From an uncultured Gemmatimonadales bacterium (GTDB taxonomy: Bacteria; Gemmatimonadota; Gemmatimonadetes; Longimicrobiales; RSA9): a stretch of 64,000 bases of DNA. Location: assembly GCA_963708135.1 (NCBI GenBank), contig OY970192.1:3040001-3104000 (forward strand), written 5' to 3'. Both the position numbers and the translations under genes were made by a program. Numbering within the stretch: position 1 is the stretch's first letter; every line of letters begins with the position of its first letter. Of this stretch, positions 26,828 to 56,059 are shown one piece after another. The notes below the pieces were generated by a model, which saw nothing but the letters and a program-made list of their open reading frames with translations, made no database searches and was not told the DNA's origin.

Positions 26828-27859
26828 GTGTACGGCATGGACGCGGAAATCGTTGCTCTCGGAAAGGGACTGCTGGGTGTCCGGTTCGCGTTCGACCGCG
26901 CCGCCGTCGCGGCGGTGCGGGCGATCCCGGGCCGCCGCTGGAACCCGACTGAGGGTCGCTGGACCGTCCCCAACACCCCCGAGAGCAGAGCCCGGCTGGC
27001 TGAGATCTTTCCCGAAAGCGACGACGACGGTTCTCTCCGCGCGCGTCTCCTCCAGGAGCTCCGCATCCGCCGCTACAGCCCGCGCACCATCAAGGCGTAT
27101 CGAAGCCACCTGACCGGATTCGCCCGCCATCTCGGCGGGCGGCCCGGCGAGGCGACGTCGGAGGACGTGCGTGCGTACCTCCTCGCCCTGCAGGCCCGAG
27201 GCGTGTCCGCGGCGTACCAGAACCAGGCCGTCAGCGCGCTGCGCTTCTTCTTCATCCACGTGCTCCGGCGGGAGCTCGATCCGGAGGCCGTGCCCAGGCC
27301 AAAGCGCGACCGGAAGCTGCCGGCGGTACTGAGCGGCGAGGAGATCCGCCGGCTCATCGCCGCGATTCGAAATCCGAAACATCGGGCACTGCTGCTCGTC
27401 ACCTATTCCGCGGGTCTCCGCGTCAGTGAAGCGGTACGCCTGAAACTCATGGATCTGGACGAAGACCGACGAATGATTTACGTTCGCGGAGGCAAGGGCA
27501 GAAAAGATCGGCAGACTCTACTGTCCGACCGCGCGCTCACGGCAGTGCGGGAGGCCCGTAAGTCCGCCGGCTCGAGCCAGTGGCTCTTTCCGGGAGCCCG
27601 CCCCGGCCGCCACCTGACCGCCCGCTCGTTCCAGAAGGTGATCGAGCGCGCGCGCGTCCGCGCCGGCATCGAGAAGCGGTTCTCCGTCCACGCCCTGCGC
27701 CACAGCTTTGCGACGCACCTGCTCGAGGCGGGCACGGACCTCCGCTACATCCAGGAGCTGCTCGGCCACTCGAGCACGCGGACGACCGAAATCTACACGC
27801 ACGTGAGCAAGCGCCAGATCGCCCGGATCCGTAGCCCGCTGGACACGTTGGGGGAGTGA
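26828..27859 (+). CDS. Tyrosine recombinase associated with the cassette array (integron-integrase-like, lacking the IntI insertion)
   Basis: SAM-like YSPRTIKAY...QNQAVSALRFFF; catalytic YSAGLRVSE, GKGRKDR, HALRHSFATHLLE, LLGHSS, TEIYTHV; extra ~60 aa N-terminal domain. Confidence 0.92.
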   Translation: MYGMDAEIVALGKGLLGVRFAFDRAAVAAVRAIPGRRWNPTEGRWTVPNTPESRARLAEIFPESDDDGSLRARLLQELRIRRYSPRTIKAYRSHLTGFARHLGGRPGEATSEDVRAYLLALQARGVSAAYQNQAVSALRFFFIHVLRRELDPEAVPRPKRDRKLPAVLSGEEIRRLIAAIRNPKHRALLLVTYSAGLRVSEAVRLKLMDLDEDRRMIYVRGGKGRKDRQTLLSDRALTAVREARKSAGSSQWLFPGARPGRHLTARSFQKVIERARVRAGIEKRFSVHALRHSFATHLLEAGTDLRYIQELLGHSSTRTTEIYTHVSKRQIARIRSPLDTLGE

Positions 27860-27935
27860 GCTGCGGGTGGAGGGGGCGCTTGCGGACGCCCTCGCCCACG
27901 AATGGGCGCACAACGGCGCCGAGGACGCCGCTTAC

Positions 27936-27987
27936 CGAAATTCGCCAAGTACGCGCCATCACGAAATTCGTAAACTGAACGTTATCT
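27936..27987 (+). other. Putative attI-like site
   Basis: First cassette starts at GTTATCT (27981) after TAAACTGAAC with no preceding attC hairpin; direct repeat CGAAATTCG at 27936 and 27962. Confidence 0.65.
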
Positions 27988-28356
27988 GGAATGCGCTGGA
28001 GCGCTGAACAGCAATGATGTGCTCCGCCGCCCCGCCCCGGTTCCAGCGGCTTTGCGTTCGCGGTGCGATCGACGTCCCCGGCCGGGACGGGTCGGACCGA
28101 CAGGAGCTGGTGAGTCGCCGTGCTTGCGCCGGCTGCGGTTCGGCAGCGAGAGAGATTAGGGGCGTCGCCGTCGACTTTCGACCGTTCCAGGGTTGCACGG
28201 CTTCGGCCGGACAGGAGAGGCGCACTCCAGATAACAGAGCGGTGACCGCTGCGCCGCCTGGGCGGCTTGCCCGCCGGGGGAGCGGTGGCGGCGTTTAGCA
28301 ACACAACATGGGCCGGCGGGACACGGCGCTGCGCGCCGCGTCGGTAACCGCGAAAC
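27981..28356 (+). repeat. ORF-less cassette type A, copy 1
   Basis: 376 bp; GTTATCTGGAATGCGC...GCGCACTCCAGATAAC plus attC-like site. Confidence 0.9.
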
Positions 28357-28363
28357 GTTATCT
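28229..28363 (+). other. attC-like site, family 1 (representative; specific to ORF-less cassettes)
   Basis: AGATAAC-agaGCGGTGACCG...GGGACACGGCGCtgcGCGCCGCGTCGGTAACCGCgaaac-GTTATCT. Confidence 0.85.
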
Positions 28364-28732
28364 GGAATGCGCTGGAGCGCTGAACAGCAATGATGTGCTC
28401 CGCCGCCCCGCCCCGGTTCCAGCGGCTTTGCGTTCGCGGTGCGATCGACGTCCCCGGCCGGGACGGGTCGGACCGACAGGAGCTGGTGAGTCGCCGTGCT
28501 TGCGCCGGCTGCGGTTCGGCAGCGAGAGAGATTAGGGGCGTCGCCGTCGACTTTCGACCGTTCCAGGGTTGCACGGCTTCGGCCGGACAGGAGAGGCGCA
28601 CTCCAGATAACAGAGCGGTGACCGCTGCGCCGCCTGGGCGGCTTGCCCGCCGGGGGAGCGGTGGCGGCGTTTAGCAACACAACATGGGCCGGCGGGACAC
28701 GGCGCTGCGCGCCGCGTCGGTAACCGCGAAAC
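28357..28732 (+). repeat. ORF-less cassette type A, copy 2
   Basis: Tandem copy, apparently identical to 27981-28356. Confidence 0.9.
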
Positions 28733-28750
28733 GTTAGAAGACATGCCGGG

Positions 28751-28782
28751 TTGACGGGCGGTGGTACTGAGTACTATAGTAC
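28751..28782 (+). promoter_or_regulatory. Cassette-internal promoter/operator of a TA module
   Basis: TTGACG-N18-TATAGT overlapping the perfect palindrome GTACTATAGTAC. Confidence 0.6.
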
Positions 28783-28818
28783 GGAGGACGTTGAAGCCGG
28801 GAGGCTCGTATCGAATTC

Positions 28819-29139
28819 GTGGCAACCCGCAGCTTCGAGAGCTCCGCGAAGAAGCTCCTGTCCGAAGAGGACCGGAGGCAGCTTGAGTTGCTCCTGCTGG
28901 GAGATCCACGACATGGCAAGGTGATTGAGCGCACTGGCGGTTTCCGGAAGGTGCGCTTCGCTCGACCCAGCCGGCGTGAAGGGAAGAGCGGCGGTACTCG
29001 GGTGATCTACTATCTCCTCGATCGACGTGACCGGATCTACCTGCTCCTCGTGTACGCGAAGGGGGTGAAGGACACCCTCACCCGCACCGAGGAGAACGAA
29101 CTTCGGAAGCTGGCAAAGGCATTGGAGGAAGAACGGTGA
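28819..29139 (+). CDS. RelE/HigB-family toxin
   Basis: GKVIERTGGFRKVRFA...GKSGGTRVIYY...IYLLLVYAKGVKDTLT. Confidence 0.88.
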   Translation: MATRSFESSAKKLLSEEDRRQLELLLLGDPRHGKVIERTGGFRKVRFARPSRREGKSGGTRVIYYLLDRRDRIYLLLVYAKGVKDTLTRTEENELRKLAKALEEER

Positions 29140-29516
29140 CCAAGGCACGGAGGAAGGGTACGTTCGGGCAGGTGCTCATCGAGTCCGCAAGAGAGGCGGT
29201 GCAGATCGAGCGCGGTGAGGCACCCCCGGCTCGTGTCACCAAGCACACGGCTGCGGAAACGAGGGTGGCACCTCCGCCTCAATACGTGCCGGAACGTATC
29301 AAGGGAATCCGGGATGTCATGGCATTGTCCCAGCCTGTCTTCGCTGCGGCCTTGAATGTGAGTCCAGAGACAGTCCGCGCTTGGGAACAGGGGAAGAGGG
29401 AACCCGACGGCCCTACGCTTCGACTCCTCAAGGTAGCGGAGCAGCACCCCGAGGTGCTCCTTACAAAAGTGCGGGCCCGAAGGTCGAGGAAACGGCCCAG
29501 CGCCGAGATCCGGTAA
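29136..29516 (+). CDS. HTH (XRE/HigA-like) antitoxin
   Basis: LSQPVFAAALNVSPETVRAWEQGKREPDGP; 4-nt overlap with the toxin. Confidence 0.88.
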   Translation: MTKARRKGTFGQVLIESAREAVQIERGEAPPARVTKHTAAETRVAPPPQYVPERIKGIRDVMALSQPVFAAALNVSPETVRAWEQGKREPDGPTLRLLKVAEQHPEVLLTKVRARRSRKRPSAEIR

Positions 29517-29558
29517 CGTGCCTTGGAATGACGCGGTCAGCGTCATGGCCGGCACGTC

Positions 29559-29673
29559 TTCTAACACACGGTGAGCGCCTGCGCGGCTTCGCTCCGGCCC
29601 TTCGGGACACCGAATCCTCAGCGCCGCGTTGCGGCGCCACCGGTTCGGCGTCGCTCACCTGGAAACGTTATCC
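29559..29673 (+). other. attC-like site, family 2 (representative)
   Basis: TTCTAAC-acacGGTGAGCG...GGGACACCGAATC...GGTTCGGCGTCGCTCACC-tggaaac-GTT. Confidence 0.85.
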
Positions 29674-30043
29674 GGAATGCGCTGGTGCGCTGGGGAGTGA
29701 ACCTCTTGTTCCCCTCCCCGCCCCGGATCCAGCGGTTTCGCGGGACCGGTGCAATCGATGATCCTGGCACACCGGGTTCGCGAGGCAGCAGCTGGTGAGG
29801 CGCCGGGCGCATCGTTCCTGTATCCGCGGCGTCGAGAGCCCGGCCGGAGTCGAAGCGTTTGTCGGCGCTGAGTTCCGGGCCGCGCCCGCCTTCCGCTGGA
29901 GGCGGAGGGGCGCACTCCGGATAACAGAGCGGTGGCCGCTGCGCCGCCTTCAGCGGCTTGCCCGCCGGGTGAAGTGAAGTCGTAGGCTGAGAACACGGGC
30001 CGGCGGGACGCGGCGCTGGGGGCCGCGTCGGCAACCGCCAGAC
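29667..30043 (+). repeat. ORF-less cassette type B, copy 1
   Basis: 377 bp; GTTATCCGGAATGCGC...GCGCACTCCGGATAAC. Confidence 0.9.
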
Positions 30044-30420
30044 GTTATCTGGAATGCGCTGGAGCGCTGAACAGCAATGATGTGCTCCGCCGCCCCGCCC
30101 CGGTTCCAGCGGCTTTGCGCTCGCGGTGCGATGGACGTTGACGGGCCGGGATGCGTCAGAGGAGGCAGGAGCTGGTGAGGCGCCGTGCGTCGGCCCGCCG
30201 GTGCGGTTCGGCAGCGGGGCACGTGCAGGTCGCCGGCGGCGAGTTGCGACCGTTCCAGAGTGCACGGCTGTGGCAGGACGCGAGAGGCGCACTGCAGATA
30301 ACGGAGCGGTGACCGCTGCGCCGCCTTCGGCGGCTCGCCCGCCGGGTGAAGTGAAGTCCAAGCCCGAAAAGATGGGCCGGCGGGACACGGCGCTGCGCGC
30401 CACGTCGGTAACCGAGAGAC
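30044..30420 (+). repeat. ORF-less cassette type C, copy 1
   Basis: 377 bp; first ~75 nt shared with type A, then diverges. Confidence 0.9.
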
Positions 30421-30797
30421 GTTATCTGGAATGCGCTGGAGCGCTGAACAGCAATGATGTGCTCCGCCGCCCCGCCCCGGTTCCAGCGGCTTTGCGTTCG
30501 CGGTGCGATCGACGTCCCCGGCCGGGACGGGTCGGACCGACAGGAGCTGGTGAGTCGCCGTGCTTGCGCCGGCTGCGGTTCGGCAGCGAGAGAGATTAGG
30601 GGCGTCGCCGTCGAACTTTCGACCGTTCCAGGGTTGCACGGCTTCGGCCGGACAGGAGAGGCGCACTCCAGATAACAGAGCGGTGACCGCTGCGCCGCCT
30701 GGGCGGCTTGCCCGCCGGGGGAGCGGTGGCGGCGTTTAGCAACACAACATGGGCCGGCGGGACACGGCGCTGCGCGCCGCGTCGGTAACCGCGAAAC
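30421..30797 (+). repeat. ORF-less cassette type A, copy 3
   Basis: 377 bp; 1-nt insertion relative to copy 1. Confidence 0.9.
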
Positions 30798-31154
30798 GTT
30801 ATCTGGAATGCGCTGGAGCGCCAAACAGCTGATGTGGTCCCCGCCCCGCCCGGTTCCAGCGGCTTTGCGCTCGCGGTGCGATGGACGTTACGGGCCGGGA
30901 TGCGTCCGAGGGGGCAGGAGCTGGTGAGGCGCCGTGCGTCAGCCCCGCCGGTGCGGTTCGGCGGCGGGGCACCTGCAGGTCGCCGGCGGCGAGTTGCGGC
31001 CATTACAGAGTGCACGGCTGTGGCAGGACGGGAGAGGCGCACTCCAGATAACGGAGCGGTGACCGCTGCGCGCTTGGCGGCTGCGCGGGTGAAGTGAAGT
31101 CAAGCGAAACGAGGGGGCGGGACACGGCGCTGCGCGCCGCGTCGGTAACGAAAC
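30798..31154 (+). repeat. ORF-less cassette type C, divergent copy
   Basis: 357 bp with many small deletions relative to 30044-30420. Confidence 0.8.
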
Positions 31155-31531
31155 GTTATCTGGAATGCGCTGGAGCGCTGAACAGCAATGATGTGCTCCG
31201 CCGCCCCGCCCCGGTTCCAGCGGCTTTGCGTTCGCGGTGCGATCGACGTCCCCGGCCGGGACGGGTCGGACCGACAGGAGCTGGTGAGTCGCCGTGCTTG
31301 CGCCGGCTGCGGTTCGGCAGCGAGAGAGATTAGGGGCGTCGCCGTTGAACTTTCGACCGTTCCAGGGTTGCACGGCTTCGGCCGGACAGGAGAGGCGCAC
31401 TCCAGATAACAGAGCGGTGACCGCTGCGCCGCCTGGGCGGCTTGCCCGCCGGGGGAGCGGTGGCGGCGTTTAGCAACACAACATGGGCCGGCGGGACACG
31501 GCGCTGCGCGCCGCGTCGGTAACCGCGAAAA
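31155..31531 (+). repeat. ORF-less cassette type A, copy 4
   Basis: Matches type A; downstream GTT core is missing (CGCGAAAAAACCGCCAT). Confidence 0.85.
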
Positions 31532-31595
31532 AACCGCCATGTTCCGCTCGGCCTTTTGTAGCAGATTTGGGGTGATAACGACAAAGGGAGATTCC

Positions 31596-32100: not shown

Positions 32101-32327
32101 GGACTACAGGTGCAGACAGAACAAGGCGGTTAACAAACGGTTGGCGCCTGCGCGGCCTGCGGCCGCTCCGGAGAACGCGCCGCGGCGGTCTAGAAGCTGG
32201 TGAGGGATCGTGTAGTTTCGAAGGTGGTCGCGCGCTGAGGGTTATAGGCGCGGCGGGTCGCCAACCTGGAAACGTTATCTGCCAGCCCTTGGGATGCTTG
32301 AGGCATGTAAGATCCTTGAGGAGAGCC

Positions 32328-32773: not shown

Positions 32774-33014
32774 GTCGAACGGGCCGGCGTTTAACTAACG
32801 TTTGGCGCCTGCGCGGCCTGCGGCCGCTCCGGAGAACCCGCCGCGGCCGCCGGGAAGCTGGTGCGTTTCGTAGAGGTTTCGAAGGTGATCGCGCGCTGGA
32901 GGTTGTTGCGCGGCGGGTCGCTAACCTAGAAACGTTATGCGATCATTGCCTCGGGTTGGTGGTGCAGACGCCCTCGCCGGTTGTGATCATGTCAGGTATG
33001 ACATAGATTGAACC

Positions 33015-33365: not shown

Positions 33366-33804
33366 GGGAAAGAGGAAGAGGCTCGAGGCGGCTGGTTGGA
33401 AGGTTGGCTCTGCCGAGGAGTTCCTGAACCTCGACGACGCTGAGGCGGCGTTCGTCGCGCTCAAACTCCGCCTGAGCGAGGAGCTGCGGGAGCGGCGAAC
33501 GAAGGAGGGATTGTCGCAAGTCGAGCTGGCGAAGCGGATTGGTTCGAGTCAGTCCCGAGTTGCGAAGATGGAGGCGAGTGATCCCACAGTGTCCGTGGAT
33601 CTGCTCCTGAAGGGGTTGTTCGCGACGGGCGCGACCCAGGATGAAATTGGTGGAGCGATCGCGAAGGGTCGCCGAGGCGTGCAGGCACGGCAGGCGCCCG
33701 AGGCAACGCGGCATAACAAGACGGTTACCGCGGCGGCGCACCTGCGGTGCGCCTTGCCCTCCGCTTCGCTCCGGGACGCCTCGCCTTCGGCTCGGTGTCG
33801 GTAA
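33358..33804 (+). CDS. XRE-family HTH antitoxin (3' end runs into the attC; true end uncertain)
   Basis: KRLEAAGWKVGSAEEFL...LSQVELAKRIGSSQSRVAKMEASDPTVSVDLL. Confidence 0.8.
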   Translation: MDKGKRKRLEAAGWKVGSAEEFLNLDDAEAAFVALKLRLSEELRERRTKEGLSQVELAKRIGSSQSRVAKMEASDPTVSVDLLLKGLFATGATQDEIGGAIAKGRRGVQARQAPEATRHNKTVTAAAHLRCALPSASLRDASPSARCR

Positions 33805-33886
33805 CGCTGAAACGTTATCCGGCATGTTCCAGGCAGCGCTTCTGTAGCAGATAGAGTTAGGGAGAACGCCGGACGAAGGAGGTCGC

Positions 33887-34360: not shown

Positions 34361-34519
34361 AGGAGCTCAGGGTGAGGTTGAACACGCGGATAACAAACGG
34401 TTGGCGCTGCGCGGTTGCGGCGCTCGGAGAATGCGCAGCGTCTGGAAGCTGGTGAGGTGATGCAGTTTCGAAGGCATGGCGCGCTGAAGGTATGGCGCGG
34501 CGGATCGCTAACTGGAAAC

Positions 34520-34892
34520 GTTATCGGAATGCGCTGGTGCGCTGGGGAGTGAACCTCTTGTTCCCCTCCCCGCCCGGATCCAGCGGTTTCGCGGGACCGG
34601 TGCGATCGATGATCTTGGCACACCGGGTTCGGAGGCAGCAGCTGGTGAGGCGCTGGGCGCATGTTCCTGTATCCGCGGCGTCGAGAGCTCGGCCGGAGTC
34701 GAAGCGTTTGTCGGCGCTGAGTTCCGGGCCGCGCTCGCCTTCCGCTGGAGGCGGAGGGGCGCACTCCGGATAACAGAGCGGTGGCCGCTGCGCCGCCTTC
34801 AGCGGCTTGCCCGCCGGGTGAAGTGAAGTCGTAGGCTGAGAACACGGGCTGGCGGGACGCGGCGCTGGGGGCCGCGTCGGCAACCGCCAGAC
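34520..34892 (+). repeat. ORF-less cassette type B, copy 2
   Basis: 373 bp, near-identical to 29667-30043. Confidence 0.88.
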
Positions 34893-34944
34893 GTTATAGG
34901 ACATTTTCCACGTTGGTCTCCCATCTGAGCAAGGAAAGTCATCG

Positions 34945-35736: not shown

Positions 35737-35919
35737 CCGGCCACGCGAGACATTCGCACGATGGAAAACGTCCTATAACTGGACAATTGCCGCAGAGCCC
35801 GCCGGGATTGAGACCACGCGGCATTTAATAGGTAGGCCGGACGGGACATGACTCCGCTCAGGCGCGAGATCGCGTTGCTCACTCGCTTCCTCGCTGCGTC
35901 ACGTCGGCAATCGCTTAAC

Positions 35920-36297
35920 GTTATCTGGAATGCGCTGGAGCGCTGAACAGCAATGATGTGCTCCGCCGCCCCGCCCCGGTTCCAGCGGCTTTGCGCTCGA
36001 GGTGCGATGGACGTTGACGGGCCGGGATGCGTCAGAGGAGGCAGGAGCTGGTGAGGCGCCGTGCGTCGGCCCCGCCGGTGCGGTTCGGCAGCGGGGCACG
36101 TGCAGGTCGCCGGCGGCGAGTTGCGACCGTTCCAGAGTGCACGGCTGTGGCAGGACGCGAGAGGCGCACTCCAGATAACGGAGCGGTGACCGCTTCGCCG
36201 CCTTCGGCGGCTCGCCCGCCGGGTGAAGTGAAGTCCAAGCCCGAAAAGATGGGCCGGCGGGACACGGCGCTGCGCGCCACGTCGGTAACCGAGAGAC
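35920..36297 (+). repeat. ORF-less cassette type C, copy 3
   Basis: 378 bp. Confidence 0.9.
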
Positions 36298-36336
36298 GTT
36301 ACGCGCCATACTGCGGGTGAAAAGTGGGGTCTTACA

Positions 36337-37038
36337 TTGAGCAACTGGTATCACCTGTACTGCGATGAGACGGGTATCGGGTCTGGACCGTCGTTCGATC
36401 TTGGTGCGCTCCAGATGTCGCCAGCACGAGCCCGGATCCTTGCGGAAGGGCTATTGCGGGTCCGTCACGAATACGGGCTCCGAGCCGAGATGAAGTGGAC
36501 GAAGGTATCTCTTGGGATGCTGGATGCGTACAAGGCCTTCGTGGATGTATTCCTGAACTGCCAGTACACGAGGCTCTATCACCTCAAAGTCCGCAAGCGC
36601 CACGATTGGACGGCGTTTGGCCGATCTGAGAATGCACGCTTCTTCAAGGCCTACTACGTTTTCCTGAGAATGCACATGCGGTCGCATTCGCGATATGTGG
36701 TGCAGGTGGATGACAAGCCAGGCAAGCGATATCGCTGGAGCCAGGTCTACTACGCCATCAACGCCGCGGCCGCTCGTGATTACGGAGTGACGCGGAAGCA
36801 GATTGCGGACTTCCGGCCGATGGATTCCAAGAGATCGGACCTGCTGCAGCTCGTGGATGTTGTGCTGGGTGCTATGACGTCGGTTGCTTCGGCCCCAGCG
36901 AAGCTGAATCTTCTCACCTATGTGCGGGATCGTGTTGCCTCAAGGGAGGCGGAGGTGAAGAGCGGCGAGTGGTCACCTACAGTGGTCGCCAAGTCCTCCT
37001 CGGCACTGGGAAGTCGTACGGCGCGTAACAAACGGTGA
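36337..37038 (+). CDS. DUF3800-like protein (cassette gene)
   Basis: YHLYCDETG, EMKWTKVS, DSKRSDLLQLVDVVLGA; stop lies inside the attC. Confidence 0.78.
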   Translation: MSNWYHLYCDETGIGSGPSFDLGALQMSPARARILAEGLLRVRHEYGLRAEMKWTKVSLGMLDAYKAFVDVFLNCQYTRLYHLKVRKRHDWTAFGRSENARFFKAYYVFLRMHMRSHSRYVVQVDDKPGKRYRWSQVYYAINAAAARDYGVTRKQIADFRPMDSKRSDLLQLVDVVLGAMTSVASAPAKLNLLTYVRDRVASREAEVKSGEWSPTVVAKSSSALGSRTARNKR

Positions 37039-37149
37039 GCGCCTGCGCAGCTCCGCTGCTTCGGCCCTGCGGGACACCCGCCTCCGGCGGGCGTCGCTCA
37101 CCTAAGAACGTTATCTGACATGAGCCGCACGACGTGATTAGATTGGCGG

Positions 37150-37694: not shown

Positions 37695-37846
37695 CTTCCC
37701 CAGCGGGTGGGCCAGCCCCGGCAGCGGCTCACATCAGATAACAAACGGTGAGCGCCTGCGCGGCTTCGCCGCTCCGGCCCTTCGGGACACCGAATCCTCA
37801 GCGCCGCGCTGCGGCGCCTCCGGTTCGGCGTCGCTCACCTACAAGC

Positions 37847-38224
37847 GTTATCTGGAATGCGCTGGAGCGCTGAACAGCAATGATGTGCTCCGCCGCCCCG
37901 CCCCGGTTCCAGCGGCTTTGCGCTCGCGGTGCGATGGACGTTGACGGGCCGGGATGCGTCAGAGGAGGCAGGAGCTGGTGAGGCGCCGTGCGTCGGCCCC
38001 GCCGGTGCGGTTCGGCAGCGGGGCACGTGCAGGTCGCCGGCGGCGAGTTGCGACCGTTCCAGAGTGCACGGCTGTGGCAGGACGCGAGAGGCGCACTCCA
38101 GATAACGGAGCGGTGACCGCTTCGCCGCCTTCGGCGGCTCGCCCGCCGGGTGAAGTGAAGTCCAAGCCCGAAAAGATGGGCCGGCGGGACACGGCGCTGC
38201 GCGCCACGTCGGTAACCGAGAGAC
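37847..38224 (+). repeat. ORF-less cassette type C, copy 4
   Basis: 378 bp, near-identical to 35920-36297. Confidence 0.9.
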
Positions 38225-38283
38225 GTTATGTGAAATCGCCCGGAGGCCGCTGAACCCGCTGCGGTTGAGAGACCCCACCTGAC

Positions 38284-38316: not shown

Positions 38317-38317
38317 G

Positions 38318-38611: not shown

Positions 38612-38619
38612 GGCATACT

Positions 38620-38946: not shown

Positions 38947-39152
38947 CACGATTGAAGCCGGGCAGAGGGGCGACTTCACATAACACACGGTGAGCGGCTA
39001 AGCGGCGTTCGCCGCTACGCCCCTACGGGACACCCCCCATGCGGCGGGCGTCGCTCACCTGGAAACGTTAGAAGACATGCCGGGTTGACGGGCGGTGGTA
39101 CTGAGTACTATAGTACGGAGGACGTTGAAGCCGGGAGGCTCGTATCGAATTC

Positions 39153-39473
39153 GTGGCAACCCGCAGCTTCGAGAGCTCCGCGAAGAAGCTCCTGTCCGAA
39201 GAGGACCGGAGGCAGCTTGAGTTGCTCCTGCTGGGAGATCCACGACATGGCAAGGTGATTGAGCGCACTGGCGGTTTCCGGAAGGTGCGCTTCGCTCGAC
39301 CCAGCCGGCGTGAAGGGAAGAGCGGCGGTACTCGGGTGATCTACTATCTCCTCGATCGACGTGACCGGATCTACCTGCTCCTCGTGTACGCGAAGGGGGT
39401 GAAGGACACCCTCACCCGCACCGAGGAGAACGAACTTCGGAAGCTGGCAAAGGCATTGGAGGAAGAACGGTGA
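39153..39473 (+). CDS. RelE/HigB-family toxin, duplicate of 28819
   Basis: Identical translation. Confidence 0.88.
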   Translation: MATRSFESSAKKLLSEEDRRQLELLLLGDPRHGKVIERTGGFRKVRFARPSRREGKSGGTRVIYYLLDRRDRIYLLLVYAKGVKDTLTRTEENELRKLAKALEEER

Positions 39474-39850
39474 CCAAGGCACGGAGGAAGGGTACGTTCG
39501 GGCAGGTGCTCATCGAGTCCGCAAGAGAGGCGGTGCAGATCGAGCGCGGTGAGGCACCCCCGGCTCGTGTCACCAAGCACACGGCTGCGGAAACGAGGGT
39601 GGCACCTCCGCCTCAATACGTGCCGGAACGTATCAAGGGAATCCGGGATGTCATGGCATTGTCCCAGCCTGTCTTCGCTGCGGCCTTGAATGTGAGTCCA
39701 GAGACAGTCCGCGCTTGGGAACAGGGGAAGAGGGAACCCGACGGCCCTACGCTTCGACTCCTCGAGGTAGCGGAGCAGCACCCCGAGGTGCTCCTTACAA
39801 AAGTGCGGGCCCGAAGGTCGAGGAAACGGCCCAGCGCCGAGATCCGGTAA
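39470..39850 (+). CDS. HTH antitoxin, duplicate of 29136
   Basis: One residue differs (LLKV vs LLEV). Confidence 0.88.
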   Translation: MTKARRKGTFGQVLIESAREAVQIERGEAPPARVTKHTAAETRVAPPPQYVPERIKGIRDVMALSQPVFAAALNVSPETVRAWEQGKREPDGPTLRLLEVAEQHPEVLLTKVRARRSRKRPSAEIR

Positions 39851-40038
39851 CGTGCCTTGGAATGACGCGGTCAGCGTCATGGCCGGCACGTCTTCTAACA
39901 CACGGTGAGCGCCTGCGCGGCTTCGCTCCGGCCCTTCGGGACACCGAATCCTCAGCGCCGCGTTGCGGCGCCACCGGTTCGGCGTCGCTCACCTGGAAAC
40001 GTTATGTGAAATGGCGCTGGCGTTGGTAGATTGAGAGC

Positions 40039-40667: not shown

Positions 40668-40855
40668 ACCCGGACGGCGCCACTTCACATAACAACCGGT
40701 GAGCGCCTTCGCGGCTTCGCCGCTCCGGCCCTTCGGGACACCGAATCCTCAGCGCCGCGATGCGGCGCCTCCGGTTCGGCGTCGCTCACCTAGAAACGTT
40801 ATCCGCCAGCCCTTGGGATGCTATCTTGTAGGCATCAAGATCCTTGAGGAGCGCC

Positions 40856-41292: not shown

Positions 41293-41446
41293 GTCGAACG
41301 GGCCGGCGGATAACAAACGGTTGGCGCCTGCGCGGCCTGCGGCCGCTCCGGAGAACCCGCCGCGGCCGCCTGGAAGCTGGTGCGGTTCGTGAGGTTTCGA
41401 AGGTGATCGCGCGCTGGAGGTTGTTGCGCGGCGGGTCGCCAACCTA

Positions 41447-42617
41447 GTGTAGTGTCTGCCAATTGAGTTGATTTAACAAGACTCCGAGCGTACTGCGGTG
41501 AGCGCCTCGCGTGCACGCTGGATCTTGCGCAAGATGTCCTCGCCTTTGGCTCGCCACCGGTACGGCTTGGGATGGAGCTTTCGTTCGGCCAAGTAGCTCT
41601 CGATGTCACTCACCAGCTCGCGTACGCTGGAGAAGCTGCCCTCCCGAATCACGTCCTGCGTCAGCTCTCCGAAGAAGCGCTCGACGAGATTCAACCAGGA
41701 CGAGCTGGTCGGCGTGAAGTGAAGGTGGAAGCGCGGATGCTTCGCAAGCCACTGGGTTACGCTCTCTTGCTTGTGCGTGCAGTAATTGTCCACGACGAGG
41801 TGTAGATCGAGATCCTTGGGCGTCTCCCGATCGATCTGCTTGAGGAAGCGAAGCCACTCGACGTGCGTGTGACGCTCTTCCGTGCGCGCGATCAATTTGC
41901 CGTCGAGGTAGTTCAGTGCAGCAAACAGCGTGATGGTGCCGTGGCGGGTGTAGTCGTGGGTCTTGGTGCGAATCTCCCCGACGCCGAGGGGTAAGCCCGG
42001 TTGGGTGCGCTCCAAGGCCTGGCACTGGCTCTTCTCGTCACAACACAGGACCAGCGCCCTCTCGGGCGGATCGAGATACAGCCCGATCACGTCCCAGAAC
42101 TTCTCCTCGAAGCGCGGATCGTTCGACAGCTTGAACGTCTGCGTCAGGTGCGGCTTGATCTCGTTTGCCCGCCAGATCCGGTGCACGCTGTCCGGCGAGA
42201 TCCCGACCTCACGGGCCATTGTGCGCACACTCCAACGCGTGCACGGCTTGGGCGGCCGAGTCGCCCGCGTGATGACCTGCTCCACCTTGTGCGCCGGGAT
42301 CGAGGGGCGCCGGCCCCGTCCTTTTCGATCCTTCAGGCCGTCCAGGCCTTCGCGCTCGAAGCGTTGGGACCACTTGTTGACGCACGCGGCGCTCACGCCC
42401 AGCTCCCGCGCCACCTGCACCTGGCCGAGACCGCGCCCGCGCCGCAGCACGATGGCGGCACGAAGGCTGTCGCGCTTGGACACGCTGGGCGCCTTCACAC
42501 GCCGCTCAAGCTCTTGCCGTTCGGCGTCGGTGATCTCGATCTTGGACACAGGTCGCGCCATGGCGCAAGGATACGCCCGGCGCCTCCTTGTGTCAAGCTA
42601 TTTGTCGGACGCTACAC
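41447..42617 (-). mobile_element. IS630-family insertion sequence inside an attC-like site
   Basis: TIRs GTGTAGTGTCTGCCAA / TTGTCGGACGCTACAC; TA duplication at 41445-46 and 42618-19 (CTAG target). Confidence 0.92.
41473..42561 (-). CDS. IS630-family transposase
   Basis: HTH N-terminus; DDE motifs CCDEKSQ, VVDNYCTH, FTPTSSSWLNLVERFF. Confidence 0.93.
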   Translation of the reverse strand: MARPVSKIEITDAERQELERRVKAPSVSKRDSLRAAIVLRRGRGLGQVQVARELGVSAACVNKWSQRFEREGLDGLKDRKGRGRRPSIPAHKVEQVITRATRPPKPCTRWSVRTMAREVGISPDSVHRIWRANEIKPHLTQTFKLSNDPRFEEKFWDVIGLYLDPPERALVLCCDEKSQCQALERTQPGLPLGVGEIRTKTHDYTRHGTITLFAALNYLDGKLIARTEERHTHVEWLRFLKQIDRETPKDLDLHLVVDNYCTHKQESVTQWLAKHPRFHLHFTPTSSSWLNLVERFFGELTQDVIREGSFSSVRELVSDIESYLAERKLHPKPYRWRAKGEDILRKIQRAREALTAVRSESC

Positions 42618-42624
42618 TAGAAAC

Positions 42625-43000
42625 GTTATCCGGAATGCGCTGGTGCGCTGAAGAGCAAGCGTGGGTGCCCCCCCTGCCACCCCGAGCCGGCGGTTTTTGC
42701 GCTCGCGGGCGTAGTGGACAATCGCGGCCGGGAGACTTCGCTGGACAGGGTGCTGGTCGGGCCGCCATGCGCTGCCAAGCCCGCTCGAGGAGTCGGTGTG
42801 CCAGGCAGGCGCCGCGCTGCTGGTGAGGCCGGTGCGGTTTCGAAGGAGCGCATGGCTGCTGCCGGCCGGGGGGGCGCACTCCGGATAACAGCGCGGTGAC
42901 CGCTGCGCCGCCTTGCCCGCCCGAAAGCGTGCAGGGACTGTGATCAGGAACTTGGGCCGGCGGGACACGGCGCTGCGCGCCGCGTCGGGCACCGCTGAAC
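42625..43000 (+). repeat. ORF-less cassette type D (most divergent)
   Basis: 376 bp; same termini and family-1 attC, different interior. Confidence 0.85.
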
Positions 43001-43377
43001 GTTATCCGGAATGCGCTGGCGCGCTGGGGAGTGAACCTGTTGTTCCCCTCCCCGCCCCGGATCCAGCGGTTTCGCGGGACCGGTGCAATCGATGATCCTG
43101 GCACACCGGGTTCGCGAGGCAGCAGCTGGTGAGGCGCCGGGCGCATTGTTCCTGTATCCGCGGCGTCGAGAGCCCGGCCGGAGTCGAAGCGTTTGTCGGC
43201 GCTGAGTTCCGGGCCGCGCCCGCCTTCCGCTGGAGGCGGAGGGGCGCACTCCGGATAACAGAGCGGTGGCCGCTGCGCCGCCTTCAGCGGCTTGCCCGCC
43301 GGGTGGAGTGAAGTCGTAGGCCGAGAACACGGGCCGGCGGGACGCGGCGCTGGGCGCCGCGTCGGCAACCGCCAGAC
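43001..43377 (+). repeat. ORF-less cassette type B, copy 3
   Basis: 377 bp, a few substitutions. Confidence 0.9.
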
Positions 43378-43444
43378 GTTAAGTGCCATCACGTGGGTTC
43401 GCCTCATGCATTAGATTGGGGCGGTTACCAACGGGAGGACTTCG

Positions 43445-43931: not shown

Positions 43932-44084
43932 ACTTAACAAACGGTTGGCGCCTGCGCGGCCTGCGGCCGCTCCGGGGAACCCGCCGCGGCCGTGACTAGA
44001 AGCTGGGGAGATCAGGGTAGTTTCGAAGGTGATCTCGGGCTGGAGGTATCGGCGCGGCGGGTCGCCAACCTGGAAACGTTATCC
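43932..44084 (+). other. attC-like site, family 3 (long form, representative)
   Basis: ACTTAAC-aaacGGTTGGCG...ACCCGCCGCG...AAGCTGG...TTTCGAAGG...CGCGGCGGGTCGCCAACC-tggaaac-GTT. Confidence 0.85.
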
Positions 44085-44454
44085 GGAATGCGCTGGTGCG
44101 CTGGGGAGTGAACCTCTTGTTCCCCTCCCCGCCCCGGATCCAGCGGTTTCGCGGGACCGGTGCAATCGATGATCCTGGCACACCGGGTTCGCGAGGCAGC
44201 AGCTGGTGAGGCGCCGGGCGCATCGTTCCTGTATCCGCGGCGTCGAGAGCCCGGCCGGAGTCGAAGCGTTTGTCGGCGCTGAGTTCCGGGCCGCGCCCGC
44301 CTTCCGCTGGAGGCGGAGGGGCGCACTCCGGATAACAGAGCGGTGGCCGCTGCGCCGCCTTCAGCGGCTTGCCCGCCGGGTGAAGTGAAGTCGTAGGCTG
44401 AGAACACGGGCCGGCGGGACGCGGCGCTGGGGGCCGCGTCGGCAACCGCCAGAC
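44078..44454 (+). repeat. ORF-less cassette type B, copy 4
   Basis: 377 bp, apparently identical to 29667-30043. Confidence 0.9.
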
Positions 44455-44645
44455 GTTATCCGAAAGCAGCCGCGGATACGCTATGAACGAAAGCATCGAT
44501 CTGATCGAGGGCGTGGTCATTGCGTATTCCGGTCATTCCGGCCATCGACTCCGGTCGAAGCCGGCCACCCGTTCCGGTGGCAAGCCGGCCGCTGATTCCG
44601 GAGCATTCCGGCCACCCGCCTCGGAGCGAAGCGACGCTGGTGCTT

Positions 44646-45970: not shown

Positions 45971-46774
45971 CTCGCCTCCGGGTTCGAGAGAACTCGGCAG
46001 GAAAGTGACGGCCGGACGGATTCAGGTCATCCAGCGCCGCTTACGCTCCGCAGGGGGTGGCCGGAATGCTCCGGAATACCCGGCCGGCATGCTCCGGAAT
46101 CGGTGGCCGGCTTCGACCGGAATCGGTGGCCGGCTTGGGCCGGAATACGCAGGTCATCAAGGGTGGCGGAGGGGCCACCAAGAACCTCCGTCCGATTGAA
46201 GACCTGATCGCGGCTCGGAGTGGGCTGCCCTCGGTCTGTGAAGGCACTTTCAACGTGGGGTTAGAGGAACACTACCCTTTGCTCGCCGTCACAGGTGTGA
46301 TTTCCAACGATGAGTATGCCCATCACCAAGAGTGCATCAAGCTCAGGCGCTGCCGGGTTCGTATGGCGGGGTCCGCCGGAGCTGGGTTTCGCGGTGTGAT
46401 CGTGCGGCCCAGTCAGCATGAGGTTCCCGGGCGGCCCTACTGGCTCCGACTCGAAGTGATGTCCCCGCACAAGCTCCGCGATACTCTTGCAGCAGGGGAC
46501 GGCGATGTAGTGGTCGTAGAAATTGAGCAACCGGCCGCTGTGAATGAGGAATGGTGGAATAGGGCAGAGTCCCTTTAGTCAAGGCGTAGGAGCGGCTGCC
46601 CTCGGATAACAAACGGTCGGCGCCTGCGCTCGCTTCGCGAGCTCCGGAGAACCCGCCGTAGCCGTGACAAGAAGCTGGTGAGGTCGGTGTCGTTTCGAAT
46701 TGTGATTCCCGCGCTCAAGGCTGCGGCGCGGCGGGTCGCCAACCTGGAGACGTTATCCGGCATCCGCTTCAGAG

Positions 46775-47259: not shown

Positions 47260-47558
47260 CGATCCTCCTTGGGAGGAGATGATACCCGTGCCGGGGTGGG
47301 CAGTTCAAGGAGAGCGTGGGTGTCGTGGAGCGAGAGGTTCCGGGTTTGCGGGCCGGCGGATAACAAACGGTTGGTGCCTGCGCGGCCTGCGGCCGCGCCG
47401 GAGAACCCGCCGCGGCCGTCTGGCAGCTGGTGAGTCTGTCGCAGTTTCGAAGGCGGCCGCGCGCTGGAGGCTGTAGTGCGGCGGGTCGCCAACCTGGAAA
47501 CGTTAGCCGAAACCGCGAAAGCGGGAGGACAGGGTGGACCAGGTCCAAGGTGGGGCGG

Positions 47559-47587
47559 TTGACGGCATGTAGTCGGTAGGATACACT
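47559..47587 (+). promoter_or_regulatory. Sigma70-type promoter of the addiction-module cassette
   Basis: TTGACG-N17-TACACT, 6 nt before the ATG. Confidence 0.7.
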
Positions 47588-49614: not shown

Positions 49615-49660
49615 ATCAAGGCGGCTCTCCGCCTGGCGCGCAATCTGGAGGAGTAGGATC

Positions 49661-49960: not shown

Positions 49961-50122
49961 TAGGTCCGTCGTGACGCGGCTTCGGCTAATAGACGTTATG
50001 TGAAATCGCTTTGGGTCGTGCATGGAGCCCATGGACGGTAGGTTGAGGTCCCAGTAGCATGAATGCCCAGAGTCGCCAGTCACGGCGGCGGGCTGCCACA
50101 ACCAGGAGTCGAGTGCTTCGAC

Positions 50123-50812: not shown

Positions 50813-51288
50813 GCGCGCTGGCCAGTGCTCTTCAGGAGCGCATCGCGGGAAACAAGGGGAACGGATGAGGGGCATGGCCGCGCGCGAGCACGCGAAATCA
50901 CATAACAAGAGAGTTGCGCCTGCGCGGCCTTCGGCCGCTCCGGAGAACACCGGCGCTGAAATGGTGCTGTTGGAAGCGGCGGTAGATATCGTTGACGATC
51001 GCAGCCTCGTCGGGACGTGAGGACGCGCCGGCGTCGCAACTCAAAGAACGTTAAGCGCCATTGGCCGGCAAGAATGAATGATTAAAGCGTGAAGCGGGAC
51101 AAAACAATCGCCTTCCTTTTCCTCCCCGCGCTTTGGGTACCGATTGCTTCGCAAGAGAGCATTCTCATCGTCGCATGAAGTCAAAGGGACGATTCCTCAG
51201 AAAGCGCCCGTCATTGACCCCTATATTTCACGAGAGTACTCTGGTCCCAAGACGACGTAACCAGGATCTCACCAGCCGGCAGTGCAAA

Positions 51289-52668: not shown

Positions 52669-52939
52669 CACATTCTCAGCAATCGTTGCCTCGACCGGTC
52701 GCGCCTGCAGCCGATCTCGGTTGAGTATCACGCTCCCGTTCAGGGTAGCGCTGAGCGCTGGATGTCGCGAAAGGTCGTCAAACGTAGCGGAATCGATCTC
52801 TTGATCTCCAACACGGCGGCGTTGCCGGACCGGCCAGCGGCGAGCCTAACGGCAGATAATAGACGTTATACGCCATGCGCCTACCCTGGCGGATAGGCGC
52901 AGAAGCATACGCGAACAGGACCGGAGGCTGGGAATCTAC

Positions 52940-53225: not shown

Positions 53226-53245
53226 TGTTGGCGTTCCAAAGCAAA

Positions 53246-54615
53246 GAGGTATCTCCAGAAGGTGTGGAAACGAGCAGAAGGCGGTGACACCTTTCGGTTG
53301 AGCCATCAACCACGGGCCTCGTGCCGGCACGAAAGGAGCCACCGCCGTGTCAAAGGTAACCAAGGAAGCGTCCTCGTCGTCAAGCGTGATATGGGGACAG
53401 CTGGAGGGCTTTGCCCGCGAGCAGGTTCAGGTATTCGTCCAGCGGCTGCTCGAGGAAGAGATCGAAGGGCTCCTGGGCCGGCGGAAGTCGGAGCGGCGAG
53501 AGCCCGGATCGGAGCCGGTCTAGCGGAACGGCTACGGCAAGGCGCGTAGGCTGGCGTTGTCGAACGGCACGATCAAGGTTCGGCGCCCGCGGGTCCGAGG
53601 GCTGGAAGAGCGGTTCGAGAGCCGAATCCTTCCGCTGTTCAAGCGGCGCACGGAGGAAGTCAGCCATCTCCTGCCCCAGCTCTACCTGCACGGGCTGGCG
53701 CTCGGCGACTTCGAGCTCGCGCTGAGGGGGCTGCTGGGGGACGCTGCTCCCCTTTCGGCTGCTTCGATCGCTCGGCTGAAGGCGCAGTGGCAGCTCGAGT
53801 TCCAGGAGTGGCGGAGCCGTTCGCTGGCCGAGCTCGACATCGTGTACTGCTGGGCGGATGGCCTGTACGTAAAGGCCGGCATCGACGACGGCAAGGCGGC
53901 GCTCCTGGTGATCATCGGTGGGACCCGCGAGGGCGAGAAGGTCGTGCTCGCCGTGGAGAGCGGGCAGCGGGAGTCGCGCGAGTCGTGGCTGGGCGTACTG
54001 CGCGACCTGAAGGCCCGCGGCATGAACGCGCCCCGACTCCTGGTCGCCGACGGCCACCTGGGCATCTGGGCCGCGGGCGCCGAGATCTGGCCGCGGTGCG
54101 AGGAGCAGCGCTGCTGGAATCACAAGATGGTCAACGTGCTGGACCAGGTTCCGAGGAAGCAGCAGGCGGCCGTCCGCCAGCACCTGAGAGGAATGATGTA
54201 CGCCGAGAGCAGGGCTGAGTGCGAGAAAGCGCGTGACCGGTGCGTGAAGCAGTTCGAGCGGCTCTACCCCAAGGCGATGGCGGCGCTCAAGCGGGACTGG
54301 GAGCGGATGGTCACCTTCTTCTCCTTCCCCCACGAGCACTGGGTCCACCTGCGCACCACCAACATCGTCGAGTCGCCCTTCGCCTCTGTGCGGCTCAGGA
54401 CCACGGCCGCAAAGCGCTACACGCGGGTCGAGAACGCCACGGCGTTGATCTGGAAGCTGCTCCTCGTAGCGGAGAAGACGTTCCGGCGGCTCAACGCCGC
54501 ACACCTGCTCGCTGCCGTTTCCGCGGGCGCAAAGTAGGTCGACGGCATCCCCGTCACCAGTCAGTCCGAAAGGGCCGCCGCCTGACGCCGTTTACACACC
54601 TATTAACGTGACCTC
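53246..54615 (+). mobile_element. IS256-family element; transposase carries in-frame stop(s)
   Basis: Imperfect TIRs GAGGT...GGTGTGGAAACG / CGTTTACACACC...ACCTC; motifs WADGLYVK, LLVADG, QRCWNHK, HLRTTNIVES; TAG at 53521; no target duplication seen. Confidence 0.85.
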
Positions 54616-54663
54616 ATACTCTGACTCAATTGGCCTACGACTTTGTCTCTGCTAACCTCCTTC

Positions 54664-55779
54664 ATGGCCGAAACCATCCGCTCCGTACTGAGCGCACCGT
54701 ATCCGCCGGGAAGCCGCTTTCAAACCCGCGGCGAGCTGTACCGCTTCGCCCTGCGCCTGTTCTTCCTTTTGGTCGCCCTTGTCGCACCCATCATGTTCCT
54801 CCGGGCCAACTGGAGCCGCACCGGATGGGATCGAGACACCGTGCCCATTCACGTGGCTGCGCGGCGGATCCAGGACGGCAAGCCCCTCTACCCGGGTCCG
54901 AGCGGTTACACTCCGCTGAGGCCCGCTCTGGTTGGAGATCGCCTGGCCTACCCGCCGTTTCTGCCGGCGGCAGTTTCGTGGGCGGCGGACAGAGATTTCC
55001 CGGCGTTCACCCGCTTATTCTACGTTGCCGACCTGCTCGCCGTGCTCGTCTACGCGATCGCGCTGGCACGCATTGCAACCGGGCGCGTGCGGCCTCTGGA
55101 CGTCGGGGTGGCCGCGGGGGCGGTCTTCGCTAGCCCGCTGGCCCTTGGGGCGATGTCCATGGGCAACCCGGAGCCCATTCTCTGGGCTCTCTACTCCCTC
55201 GCGATCGCGTTCCCGGTATTTCGCGGCGCCGGGTTTCTGATGGCAGGCTCAGTGAAGCTGTTCGGGTTCTGGCCTCTGGCGGTGGCAGCCGTTCGAGATC
55301 GACGACGGACTCTGATCTCTGCCTCCGTTGCCGCGCTCGCCCTCGCCGCTCTAGGAATCGGCGTTCTCGGCGCTCCAGGGCTGCTTCAGGCGATGGTCAA
55401 CTGGTTCCGCTACTCCATGCCGGAGAGCGCGCAGGGGAGTTTCTTCTACGCGAACGTCTCCGTCAGCTTTGCCGTGGTGCGACTGGCTCGCCACCTCGGG
55501 TGGCAATACACCGGTGGTCCCCTTCCATTACTCGCAAGGATATGGCTCTTCGGCGCGGGCGTGACGGCCCCGCTCGTCACGGGCTGGATGACCCGTAATC
55601 GGAGCACGGATGTCCAATGCGCCGCTGTGCTCGTGGCGGCCCTGGCCTTTTCACCGATCTGCTGGTCGGAATACTCAGCCGTCCTTCTTCTACCCGGGGC
55701 CCTCTGGCTCCGCGTCCGCGCGCGGCTCCCGGAGCCGGAGCCCGCACAGGTGCCGCCCGAATCGGTCTATCATATCTGA
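54664..55779 (+). CDS. Polytopic membrane protein, glycosyltransferase family 87-like
   Basis: AARRIQDGKPLY, LAYPPFL, MGNPEP, SVKLF, FSPICWSEY; many TM segments. Confidence 0.65.
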   Translation: MAETIRSVLSAPYPPGSRFQTRGELYRFALRLFFLLVALVAPIMFLRANWSRTGWDRDTVPIHVAARRIQDGKPLYPGPSGYTPLRPALVGDRLAYPPFLPAAVSWAADRDFPAFTRLFYVADLLAVLVYAIALARIATGRVRPLDVGVAAGAVFASPLALGAMSMGNPEPILWALYSLAIAFPVFRGAGFLMAGSVKLFGFWPLAVAAVRDRRRTLISASVAALALAALGIGVLGAPGLLQAMVNWFRYSMPESAQGSFFYANVSVSFAVVRLARHLGWQYTGGPLPLLARIWLFGAGVTAPLVTGWMTRNRSTDVQCAAVLVAALAFSPICWSEYSAVLLLPGALWLRVRARLPEPEPAQVPPESVYHI

Positions 55780-55945
55780 ACACCGCTGCATGGCAGCAGA
55801 TGGCGGCGAACTTGCTCCACGGCCGCCGTGGCGACACCGCGCGGCCGTTGCCATAAGCGCGCCGCTGCCACCCCGCGTGCCCAGGGACACGGCGACGGCA
55901 GCTCGTAAGCAACGGGCTCAAAGCAAACGGATTACGGCGCACGGC

Positions 55946-56059
55946 GTACAACACGAGCGTTCCCGCTGCGCTCGCGTTCGCTCGCTTGCCGCTTCGCGGA
56001 CACCCCTGCGCTTCGCTTCGCGCCGCTGCGGGGTGTCGGGAACGCCTGGAACGTTCTAT
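55946..56059 (+). other. Last attC-like site of the array
   Basis: GTACAAC-acgaGCGTTCCCG...GGACACCCC...GGGGTGTCGGGAACGC-ctggaac-GTTCTAT. Confidence 0.78.

Follow-up and report, generated by a model that had tools for sequence, protein, structure and literature searches.

Integrons are defined, and detected by software, through a domain specific to the integron integrase IntI, which is held to be essential for gripping the extrahelical bases of attC sites. As far as the excerpts of the literature used here and below go, the I2 segment serves to accommodate these bases, which also block the second strand exchange in IntI (PMC4792948). In these excerpts, Cury et al. 2016 report 50 recombinases without intI_Cterm beside attC sites, four of them placed between IntI and Xer and each with <3 attC sites, and state that such recombinases 'are not IntI'; attC clusters without an integron integrase (CALINs) are described as common and mostly without nearby intI pseudogenes (PMC4889954). 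Smyshlyaev et al. 2021 remark that the insertion 'is not fully conserved' in an integron-like subgroup (PMC8138268), and Neron et al. 2022 describe integrons as extremely rare in Firmicutes and Bacteroidetes, a single complete integron being reported for each of Firmicutes and Bacteroidetes proper, the latter in Salinibacter ruber (PMC9024848). Here, we describe a locus within 64,000 nucleotides of DNA from an uncultured Gemmatimonadales bacterium (contig OY970192.1, positions 3,040,001 to 3,104,000; hereafter the window), where the gene for a tyrosine recombinase of a family termed the short family (SF) is followed by an array of 30 cassettes. With a probability of roughly three in four, we regard the locus of this soil bacterium as a sedentary, integron-like chromosomal cassette platform, the recombinase of which belongs to a separate SF family that groups with IntI. 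A search of titles and abstract openings, with subscription journals mostly outside its reach, yielded no description of the SF class or of a fusion between a HARP domain and a recombinase.

The window is part of a complete single-contig genome of 5.45 Mb. Among sequencing runs, no RNA data set containing this DNA was listed, and the single DNA data set was a soil metagenome, stored as contigs, with 0.16 of the words. The parts of the locus on which the argument rests are the following.

26828-27859, + strand: tyrosine recombinase gene of the SF, 343 amino acids (open reading frame call, Pfam)
26828-27013, + strand: HARP-like domain, residues 1-62, beta-beta-alpha-beta-beta-alpha in the predicted structure (pLDDT ~90)
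27536-27607, + strand: residues 237-260, the place of the IntI extra domain, 24 residues against 66 in VchIntIA
27936-27987, no strand assigned: attI-like region, two CGAAATTCG repeats (27936-27944 and 27962-27970), then the first junction G|TT at 27981-27983
27982-56053, + strand: array of 30 cassettes, cut at G|TT, with attC at the cassette 3' ends

The closest described relatives of this arrangement are the inverted-integrase chromosomal integrons, which likewise have an end-placed tyrosine recombinase, an attI junction, attC-bounded cassettes whose borders fall at G|TT, boxes of the types RYYYAAC (R'') and GTTRRRY (R'), and an array in which toxin-antitoxin cassettes abound. As in the canonical integrons of the phylum, the recombinase gene reads towards the array. 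In contrast to canonical integrons, the SF enzyme lacks the IntI segment of ~40 residues and carries an N-terminal HARP-like domain, the SF attC sites are without extrahelical bases in the L box, and SF forms a separate branch beside IntI. With at least two attC sites and no IntI-domain protein nearby, the locus falls under the definition of a CALIN and would probably be filed as such by IntegronFinder; unlike a CALIN, it has an intact and conserved recombinase of one family at the attI end, here and in many genomes. The two-domain fold without insert is shared with XerC/XerD and XerA, whereas SF groups with IntI and accompanies arrays instead of a single dif site.

The preliminary description of this DNA had counted 23 residues between the motifs GKGRKDR and WLFP and had concluded that the IntI-specific segment is missing. 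The translation of the gene confirms the count, and the segment was not found with either of two stand-ins for the intI_Cterm profile, i.e. positions 179-234 of TIGR02249 (integron integrase) and an alignment to VchIntIA (2a3v). The recombinase matches TIGR02249 in two blocks (model positions 5-178 and 235-315), leaving 179-234 unmatched, with a score under the cut-off (216.9; cut-off 265), as is the score for NF011946 (154.5; cut-off 435). In the alignment to 2a3v, residues 237-260 of the query (24 residues) lie opposite residues 174-239 of the integrase (66 residues). The spacing from GKGxKDR to HxLRHSFA, counted in those rows that match both motif patterns out of 41 SF, 21 IntI and 13 Xer rows, is 59 residues in the window recombinase and 58-61 in 32 SF rows, against 100-103 in 11 IntI and 62-68 in 10 Xer rows. 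Judged by this spacing, no SF member examined (32 rows) carries the IntI insert. Moreover, none of the 11 TIGR02249 matches in the complete 5.45-Mb genome lies above the cut-off, which speaks against a canonical intI elsewhere.

Apart from this segment, the enzyme is complete. Its core-binding domain is SAM-like (PF13495), its catalytic domain matches PF00589 (E 3.9e-43), and the full catalytic set (R198, K223/K226, H288, R291, H314 and Y323) is present and invariant across an alignment of 18 SF members. In structure comparison, its nearest fold is VchIntIA (2a3v). The scores against the XerD and XerC equivalog models both remain below the cut-offs (206.3 against 329.6 and 200 against 335.15, respectively), and NF040815 (archaeal XerA), the name of which itself hedges ('tyrosine recombinase/integron integrase'), is passed narrowly (225.5 against 220). 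Since the genome holds a separate XerD (332.6 against the cut-off of 329.6) and a XerC-like gene, the window recombinase is not the housekeeping Xer. The family is large, as 7990 of 8000 scored candidates match at E <=1e-10 and the best 120 are 46-63% identical.

The position of SF was determined with a tree of 75 rows (IQ-TREE, LG+G4), comprising 41 SF rows drawn from 36 of the 80 loci described below and from 8 loci of relatives, 21 IntI rows including IntI1, and 13 Xer rows, among them XerC and XerD of E. coli and a single archaeal XerA (L180); four rows with stops or odd matches, one fragment and one long-branch paralogue were left out. The Xer rows are split from SF and IntI with an ultrafast bootstrap of 98 and an SH-aLRT of 85, and IntI forms one group at 100/100. 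The enzyme, initially labelled 'XerD-like', is thus not of that kind: SF groups with IntI, apart from XerC/D/A. The Xer rows are without insert and, most simply, the ancestor shared by SF and IntI therefore had none either; both branches keep arrays.

The sites in the array were searched with a covariance model trained on 11 array sites, so that matches to those 11 follow by construction. It returned 28 sites from 28229 to 56059, all on the + strand, and none elsewhere in the window; over the whole genome, 28 sites lie in the array and one elsewhere. Two extra sites (31404-31535 and 35773-35926) were found by other routes; of the scripts tried for attC detection, the first was too strict (5 sites) and the second noisy. 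In the list below, sites were found by the covariance model unless stated otherwise.

28229-28363, + strand: attC 1
28605-28739, + strand: attC 2
29559-29673, + strand: attC 3
29919-30050, + strand: attC 4
30296-30427, + strand: attC 5
30670-30804, + strand: attC 6
31046-31161, + strand: attC 7, shortened
31404-31535, + strand: attC 8, R' box lost, found by a route other than the 28-site model search
32128-32280, + strand: attC 9
32789-32940, + strand: attC 10
33711-33820, + strand: attC 11
34388-34526, + strand: attC 12
34768-34899, + strand: attC 13
35773-35926, + strand: attC 14, found by script only, missed by the covariance models
36173-36304, + strand: attC 15
37023-37116, + strand: attC 16
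37736-37853, + strand: attC 17
38100-38231, + strand: attC 18
38978-39073, + strand: attC 19, with a second occurrence outside the array (G000:C1:329626-329721)
39893-40007, + strand: attC 20
40687-40804, + strand: attC 21
41308-41457, + strand: attC 22, split by an IS630-like element, R' end at 42617-42631
42883-43007, + strand: attC 23
43253-43384, + strand: attC 24
43932-44084, + strand: attC 25
44330-44461, + strand: attC 26
46604-46758, + strand: attC 27
47358-47508, + strand: attC 28
50900-51056, + strand: attC 29
55946-56059, + strand: attC 30, the last, with a weak model score (15.5 bits, E 0.048) and a perfect 9-bp L stem

The sites are built from an R'' box (xTAAC), L'', a variable middle, L' and an R' box (GTTAx). 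Pairing was assessed in an alignment that had been fitted to the model and hence leans towards the structure. In it, 89% of the pair cells in the R and L boxes form pairs, against 22-51% when the 3' partners were slid by 1-3 columns as a control, and changes on both sides occur in 10 of 17 pairs.

In line with the missing segment, the corresponding bases of the DNA are missing as well. Both attC arms were aligned inward from the R boxes; repeat elements that scored <16 when the arms were aligned, or <2 of 4 on R extension, were dropped, as were hairpins of <70 nt. For comparison, 20 canonical IntI loci of the phylum were fetched (L154-L173), most of which have the array 3' of intI and co-oriented with it (the inverted-integrase layout), and 91 sites from 10 arrays were analysed. 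In all 91, extra bases occur on the R''-L'' arm but not on the opposite one, and 79 of them have exactly two in the pattern GTT-N-6 bp-N. The same extra bases were observed in all four sites detected in a class 1 control (E. coli plasmid), and in the Vibrio cholerae repeat (VCR) the R''-L'' arm is given as 34 nt against 31, with extrahelical bases in L'' (PMC2727003, excerpt). In 10 SF arrays, 36 of 45 sites are without an extra base on either arm in 16 columns. With the sites defined by model, this holds for 46 of 60 in the 16 aligned columns; 13 of the remaining 14 have gaps past a clean 8-bp L stem, the exception being the shortened attC 7 (31046). Likewise, the R2 covariance model scores up to 82 bits on SF loci and <=26 bits on canonical loci. 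As I2 accommodates the extrahelical bases, the joint absence of the insert and of these bases, its DNA ligand, is coherent; it speaks against a relic and for a distinct cassette system that works. A canonical IntI above the TIGR02249 cut-off is encoded in 124 of 301 sampled genomes of the phylum, a tally that includes up to 3 unpublished ones; in the related genome G010 (C193, C14 and C89), canonical IntI and SF members occur together.

The cassettes have been duplicated and moved as whole units. As announced by the preliminary description, an array of 28 kb begins about 120 bp past the recombinase stop codon, the G of the first junction (27981) lying 122 nt after it. The array itself stands, but its count of 32 cassettes has to be lowered to 30, although two attI-like junctions at 49993 and 52863 could make 32. 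The shuffling that had been inferred from recurring cassettes was found too: near-identical cassettes with edges at G|TT sit among different neighbours, as exemplified by cassettes 3 (28734-29667) and 20 (39068-40001), which both encode a RelE-like and helix-turn-helix (HTH) pair and are 99.9% identical over 934 nt with differing neighbours. Cassette copies within the array are 99.7-100% identical, suggesting recent movement. Copies of a cassette have the downstream attC in common but not the upstream one, and their identity breaks off at G|TT. The mobile unit is thus the open reading frame (ORF) together with the attC that follows it, as is the case for integrons. An alternative placement of the edges at the left (R'') box was ruled out on the same ground, since duplicates do not share the upstream attC. 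Coding cassettes read mainly on the + strand, and toxin-antitoxin pairs are frequent (RelE/HTH, Gp49/HTH, DUF4258/DUF2283, NTP_transf_2/HepT, HicA/HicB, ParE-like). The GC content at third codon positions is ~0.72-0.83 in cassette ORFs against >=0.9 in flanking genes.

At the recombinase end, the first cassette junction reads AACG|TTATCTGG. In 18 related loci inspected, a GTTRRRY junction lies 100-300 nt past the recombinase stop, often preceded by repeats of the type (A)GTTCGnAnAT, and the junction-proximal repeat resembles the TCG...AAC step of the attC L' arm. These features point to a putative attI-type site adjoining the recombinase gene, as in integrons.

The linkage of gene and array was also examined in relatives. 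Homologues at 46-62% identity are encoded in the related genomes G002, G004, G006, G009, G010, G012, G014 and G039, as well as in two unpublished genomes that were left aside, and the flanks of 12 places were fetched (L041-L052). In all six relatives' loci with usable downstream DNA (L042-L046 and L049), attC sites lie downstream on the strand of the gene; in L041, L047 and L048 the contig ends at the homologue, and the short contigs L051 and L052 gave no attC match. One related genome, G009, carries at least five SF members, of which two stand in tandem 3.2 kb apart with attC between them and one divergent member is convergent with an array (L050; L049 = G009:C22). Among public species genomes, 597 of 603 pattern matches encode relatives.

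For a cross-phylum set, the best 80 loci were taken, which span many phyla. Across them, all 15 matches of R2 (E up to 1) lie downstream on the + strand. Under default filters, R2 misses attC sites of AT-rich phyla, and self-similarity and structural scans were therefore used instead. Self-similarity revealed downstream direct repeats with TAAC...AACGTTAG ends in L054, L066, L080, L088, L089, L102 and L133. The structural scan, which uses no sequence of the window, gave 40 matches in 290 kb downstream on the same strand (0.138 per kb), against 4 and 9 in 588 kb upstream and 4 in 290 kb downstream on the opposite strand (0.007-0.015 per kb); a stricter version gave 22 against 0, 1 and 1 in the controls. 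Integron cassettes begin with a stretch that is complementary to the sequence flanking their own attC on the 5' side. Such complementarity, traced from a GTT <=450 nt past the stop, was observed in 19 of the 58 loci and in none of the 49 mirror controls, and at a second setting in 13 of 58 against 0 of 47. Of the 31 loci with >=3 kb of downstream DNA, 16 show at least one line of attC evidence and 11 at least two. Contigs break within 2.5 kb of the gene downstream in 28 loci and upstream in 3, as repetitive arrays break short-read assemblies. In Gemmatimonadota, Bacillota, Bacteroidota, Spirochaetota, Ignavibacteriota and others, the attC-like sites near homologues are thus confined almost entirely to the downstream side and the same strand, and this recurrence of the gene-array pairing in many phyla has the look of an overlooked second integron lineage. 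On one short contig of an archaeal bin (G325:C31), we observed two tandem SF copies.

Some insertion sequences (IS) and introns target attC sites. The enzyme was considered as the recombinase of such an attC-targeting element; this was rejected, as attC sites lie on one side of the gene only and core genes on the other, opposite to the array.

Most SF members carry the N-terminal HARP-like domain. The HARP fold, as in SMARCAL1 and T4 UvsW, is known for junction-specific DNA binding, and HARP has reportedly been linked to XPB by Mason et al. in 2014. Pfam HARP (PF07443) matches 10 of the 21 homologous N-domains when E values up to 10 are admitted, with 4.3e-6 as the best value; the window N-domain scores 11.2 bits (E 0.28; gathering cut-off 25 bits). 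By fold, the N-domain weakly matches the T4 UvsW N-domain (Z 5.6 and 5.5) and XPB N-domains, and in Foldseek the HARP domain of SMARCAL1 ranks first (E 0.028), with no match at E <=0.001. What residues 1-62 share with SMARCAL1 and UvsW is thus their fold and a weak similarity in sequence, whereas the SF domain is fused to a tyrosine recombinase and not to a motor protein.

Taken together, the SF branch beside IntI, the recurrent linkage and the distinct attC type suggest, on sequence grounds, that a separate insert-less cassette-capture lineage serves the array, as the preliminary description had proposed. Several observations weigh against this interpretation. SF forms one group in only 62% of the bootstrap trees, with IntI nesting inside SF otherwise, and the XerA row (L180), the single one in the tree, falls with Xer, apart from SF and IntI (98/85). 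The R1 and R2 models were trained on the window's own sites. Linkage to arrays is frequent, as seen in the six relatives and the 15 R2 matches, but not universal: 15 of the 31 loci with >=3 kb downstream show no attC by any of the scans, which are insensitive (the strict scan recovered 2 of 8 sites in L071), and inspection by eye of five of these 15 revealed an R'' box matching the cassette start in two and not in three. In L050 (G009:C31), the homologue lies at the far end of an array and is convergent with it. The fold matches of the N-domain are weak, with Z at most 5.6, and the HARP-like domain is missing in the array-bearing L088 and degenerate in L042, and missing also in L061 and L068; given the arrays in L088 and L042, it is not essential. 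Finally, canonical integrons being common in the phylum (124/301), a foreign IntI may have acted on the window array in the past.

This last point leads to an unlikely alternative, namely that the array is a CALIN relic of a canonical IntI, since lost or acting in trans, and that the recombinase beside it has no connection with the array. In favour of this, canonical IntI occurs often in the phylum, CALINs are, in the portion of the source cited, common and mostly without intI pseudogenes (PMC4889954), and the locus fits the IntegronFinder definition. On the other hand, the layout of gene followed by array is repeated in many phyla, an attI-like junction directly follows the recombinase gene, the genome holds no intI or intI remnant above the cut-off, and the array sites are without extrahelical bases, which were seen in each of the 91 sites from canonical arrays of the phylum.

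We therefore return to an SF enzyme that serves its own array and consider how it would act. It would excise cassettes by recombination between two attC sites, and the excised circles would be inserted at attI. We favour the possibility that the folded bottom strand is used with a single strand exchange, as in integrons. Recognition must differ from that by IntI, because neither the I2 segment nor the extrahelical bases are present. The choice of strand might instead come from the central spacer, which is unpaired and strongly asymmetric (3-6 nt towards R'' and 5-8 towards R'), together with the conserved G-T-C-G step before L'; a passage in the literature states that, without extrahelical bases, the unpaired spacer can still set strand choice (PMC2727003). 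The HARP-like N-domain might contribute to contacts with the hairpin, with a junction or with the attI repeats.

Equally improbable as the relic is a role of the enzyme as a Xer-like double-strand recombinase, acting on an L'-R' simple site by two ordered strand exchanges. I2 is absent, as are the extrahelical bases, which according to the excerpt block the second exchange in IntI (PMC4792948), and L' and R' form an inverted pair around a spacer of 5-8 nt, as such a mechanism would have it. However, the L'-R' spacers differ among the sites of one array and thus fit poorly with a classical two-strand exchange, which needs homology in the spacer. Furthermore, pairing of R'' with R' and of L'' with L' is kept by compensatory changes, and over >=9-12 nt the beginning of a cassette pairs with the sequence flanking the attC that belongs to it, both of which are sensible only for a folded strand. 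That the enzyme is a decayed, inactive IntI minus its extra domain beside a frozen array is very improbable. SF does group with IntI, and the array is full of IS elements, one inside an attC; against this reading stand the size and conservation of the family, its invariant catalytic residues, the absence of the insert in every member examined and cassette copies of 99.7-100% identity, which indicate recent movement.

Several further features of the array deserve description. Of its 30 cassettes, 13 are copies of one ORF-less cassette of ~376 nt, which occurs in 4-5 variants, scattered and including the first two cassettes.

27982-28357, 28358-28733, 29668-30044, 30045-30421, 30422-30798, 30799-31155 and 31156-31529: ORF-less cassette, copies 1-7
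34521-34893, 35921-36298, 37848-38225, 42626-43001, 43002-43378 and 44079-44455: ORF-less cassette, copies 8-13

RNAalifold predicts 61 pairs for this cassette, 17 of which are changed on both sides; it has no Rfam match and, by blastn, no similar sequence in the other fetched loci, and Rfam at gathering thresholds yields nothing in the window. A role as small RNA, promoter cassette or regulatory site is conceivable. The arrays of L088 and L102 likewise start with repeated ORF-less cassettes.

Four IS elements lie within the array.

41443-42621, - strand: IS630-like element (DDE_3 transposase) inside attC 22, with at least 7 other copies or parts in the genome
44520-46151, - strand: IS-like element in cassette 27, helix-turn-helix only by Pfam, with 3 copies elsewhere in the genome at 80-82% identity
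47846-49620, - strand: IS1380-like element (DDE_Tnp_1_4) in cassette 29, with 4 other genome copies
53240-54537, + strand: IS256-like transposase (Transposase_mut) in cassette 30

The insertion point of the IS630-like element is exactly the unpaired spacer of attC 22, between AACCTAG and CTAGAAACGTTAT. A copy of cassette 19, which consists of a HigB/HigA-like pair and attC, resides outside any array 2.7 Mb away (G000:C1:329617-330469; L053 ~4618-5470, - strand), with 98.6% identity over 853 nt. This distant copy adjoins an IS1380-like copy and may have arisen by insertion at a secondary site or by an IS-mediated move.

Towards the distal part of the array, two junctions of attI type lack a recognisable attC body.

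49983-49999, + strand: attI-type junction without recognisable attC body, ATAGACGTTAT
52853-52869, + strand: second such junction, ATAATAGACGTTAT

Both resemble the attI junctions of the Paenibacillaceae loci L058 and L059 (AAATAAGACGTTAT), and they might be degenerate sites or secondary targets.

Beyond this locus, we lean slightly towards the view that HARP recombinases without insert, together with attC sites without extrahelical bases, constitute an ancient second integron lineage in Gemmatimonadota, Bacillota, Bacteroidota, Spirochaetota, Ignavibacteriota and some archaeal bins. If so, cassette capture through attC hairpins would be older than the I2 insert, and the lock formed by I2 and the extrahelical bases would be a later refinement of one branch. 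Many CALINs, as well as the scarcity of integrons in Gram-positives and Bacteroidota, would then be artefacts of a definition based on the insert. Integron finders would gain a second enzyme profile and a second attC model, and synthetic biology would gain a possibly simpler cassette recombinase. A sister family that keeps arrays without insert or bases would show a second way to recombine folded attC sites, and would add cassette platforms to clades that have been reported as nearly free of integrons.

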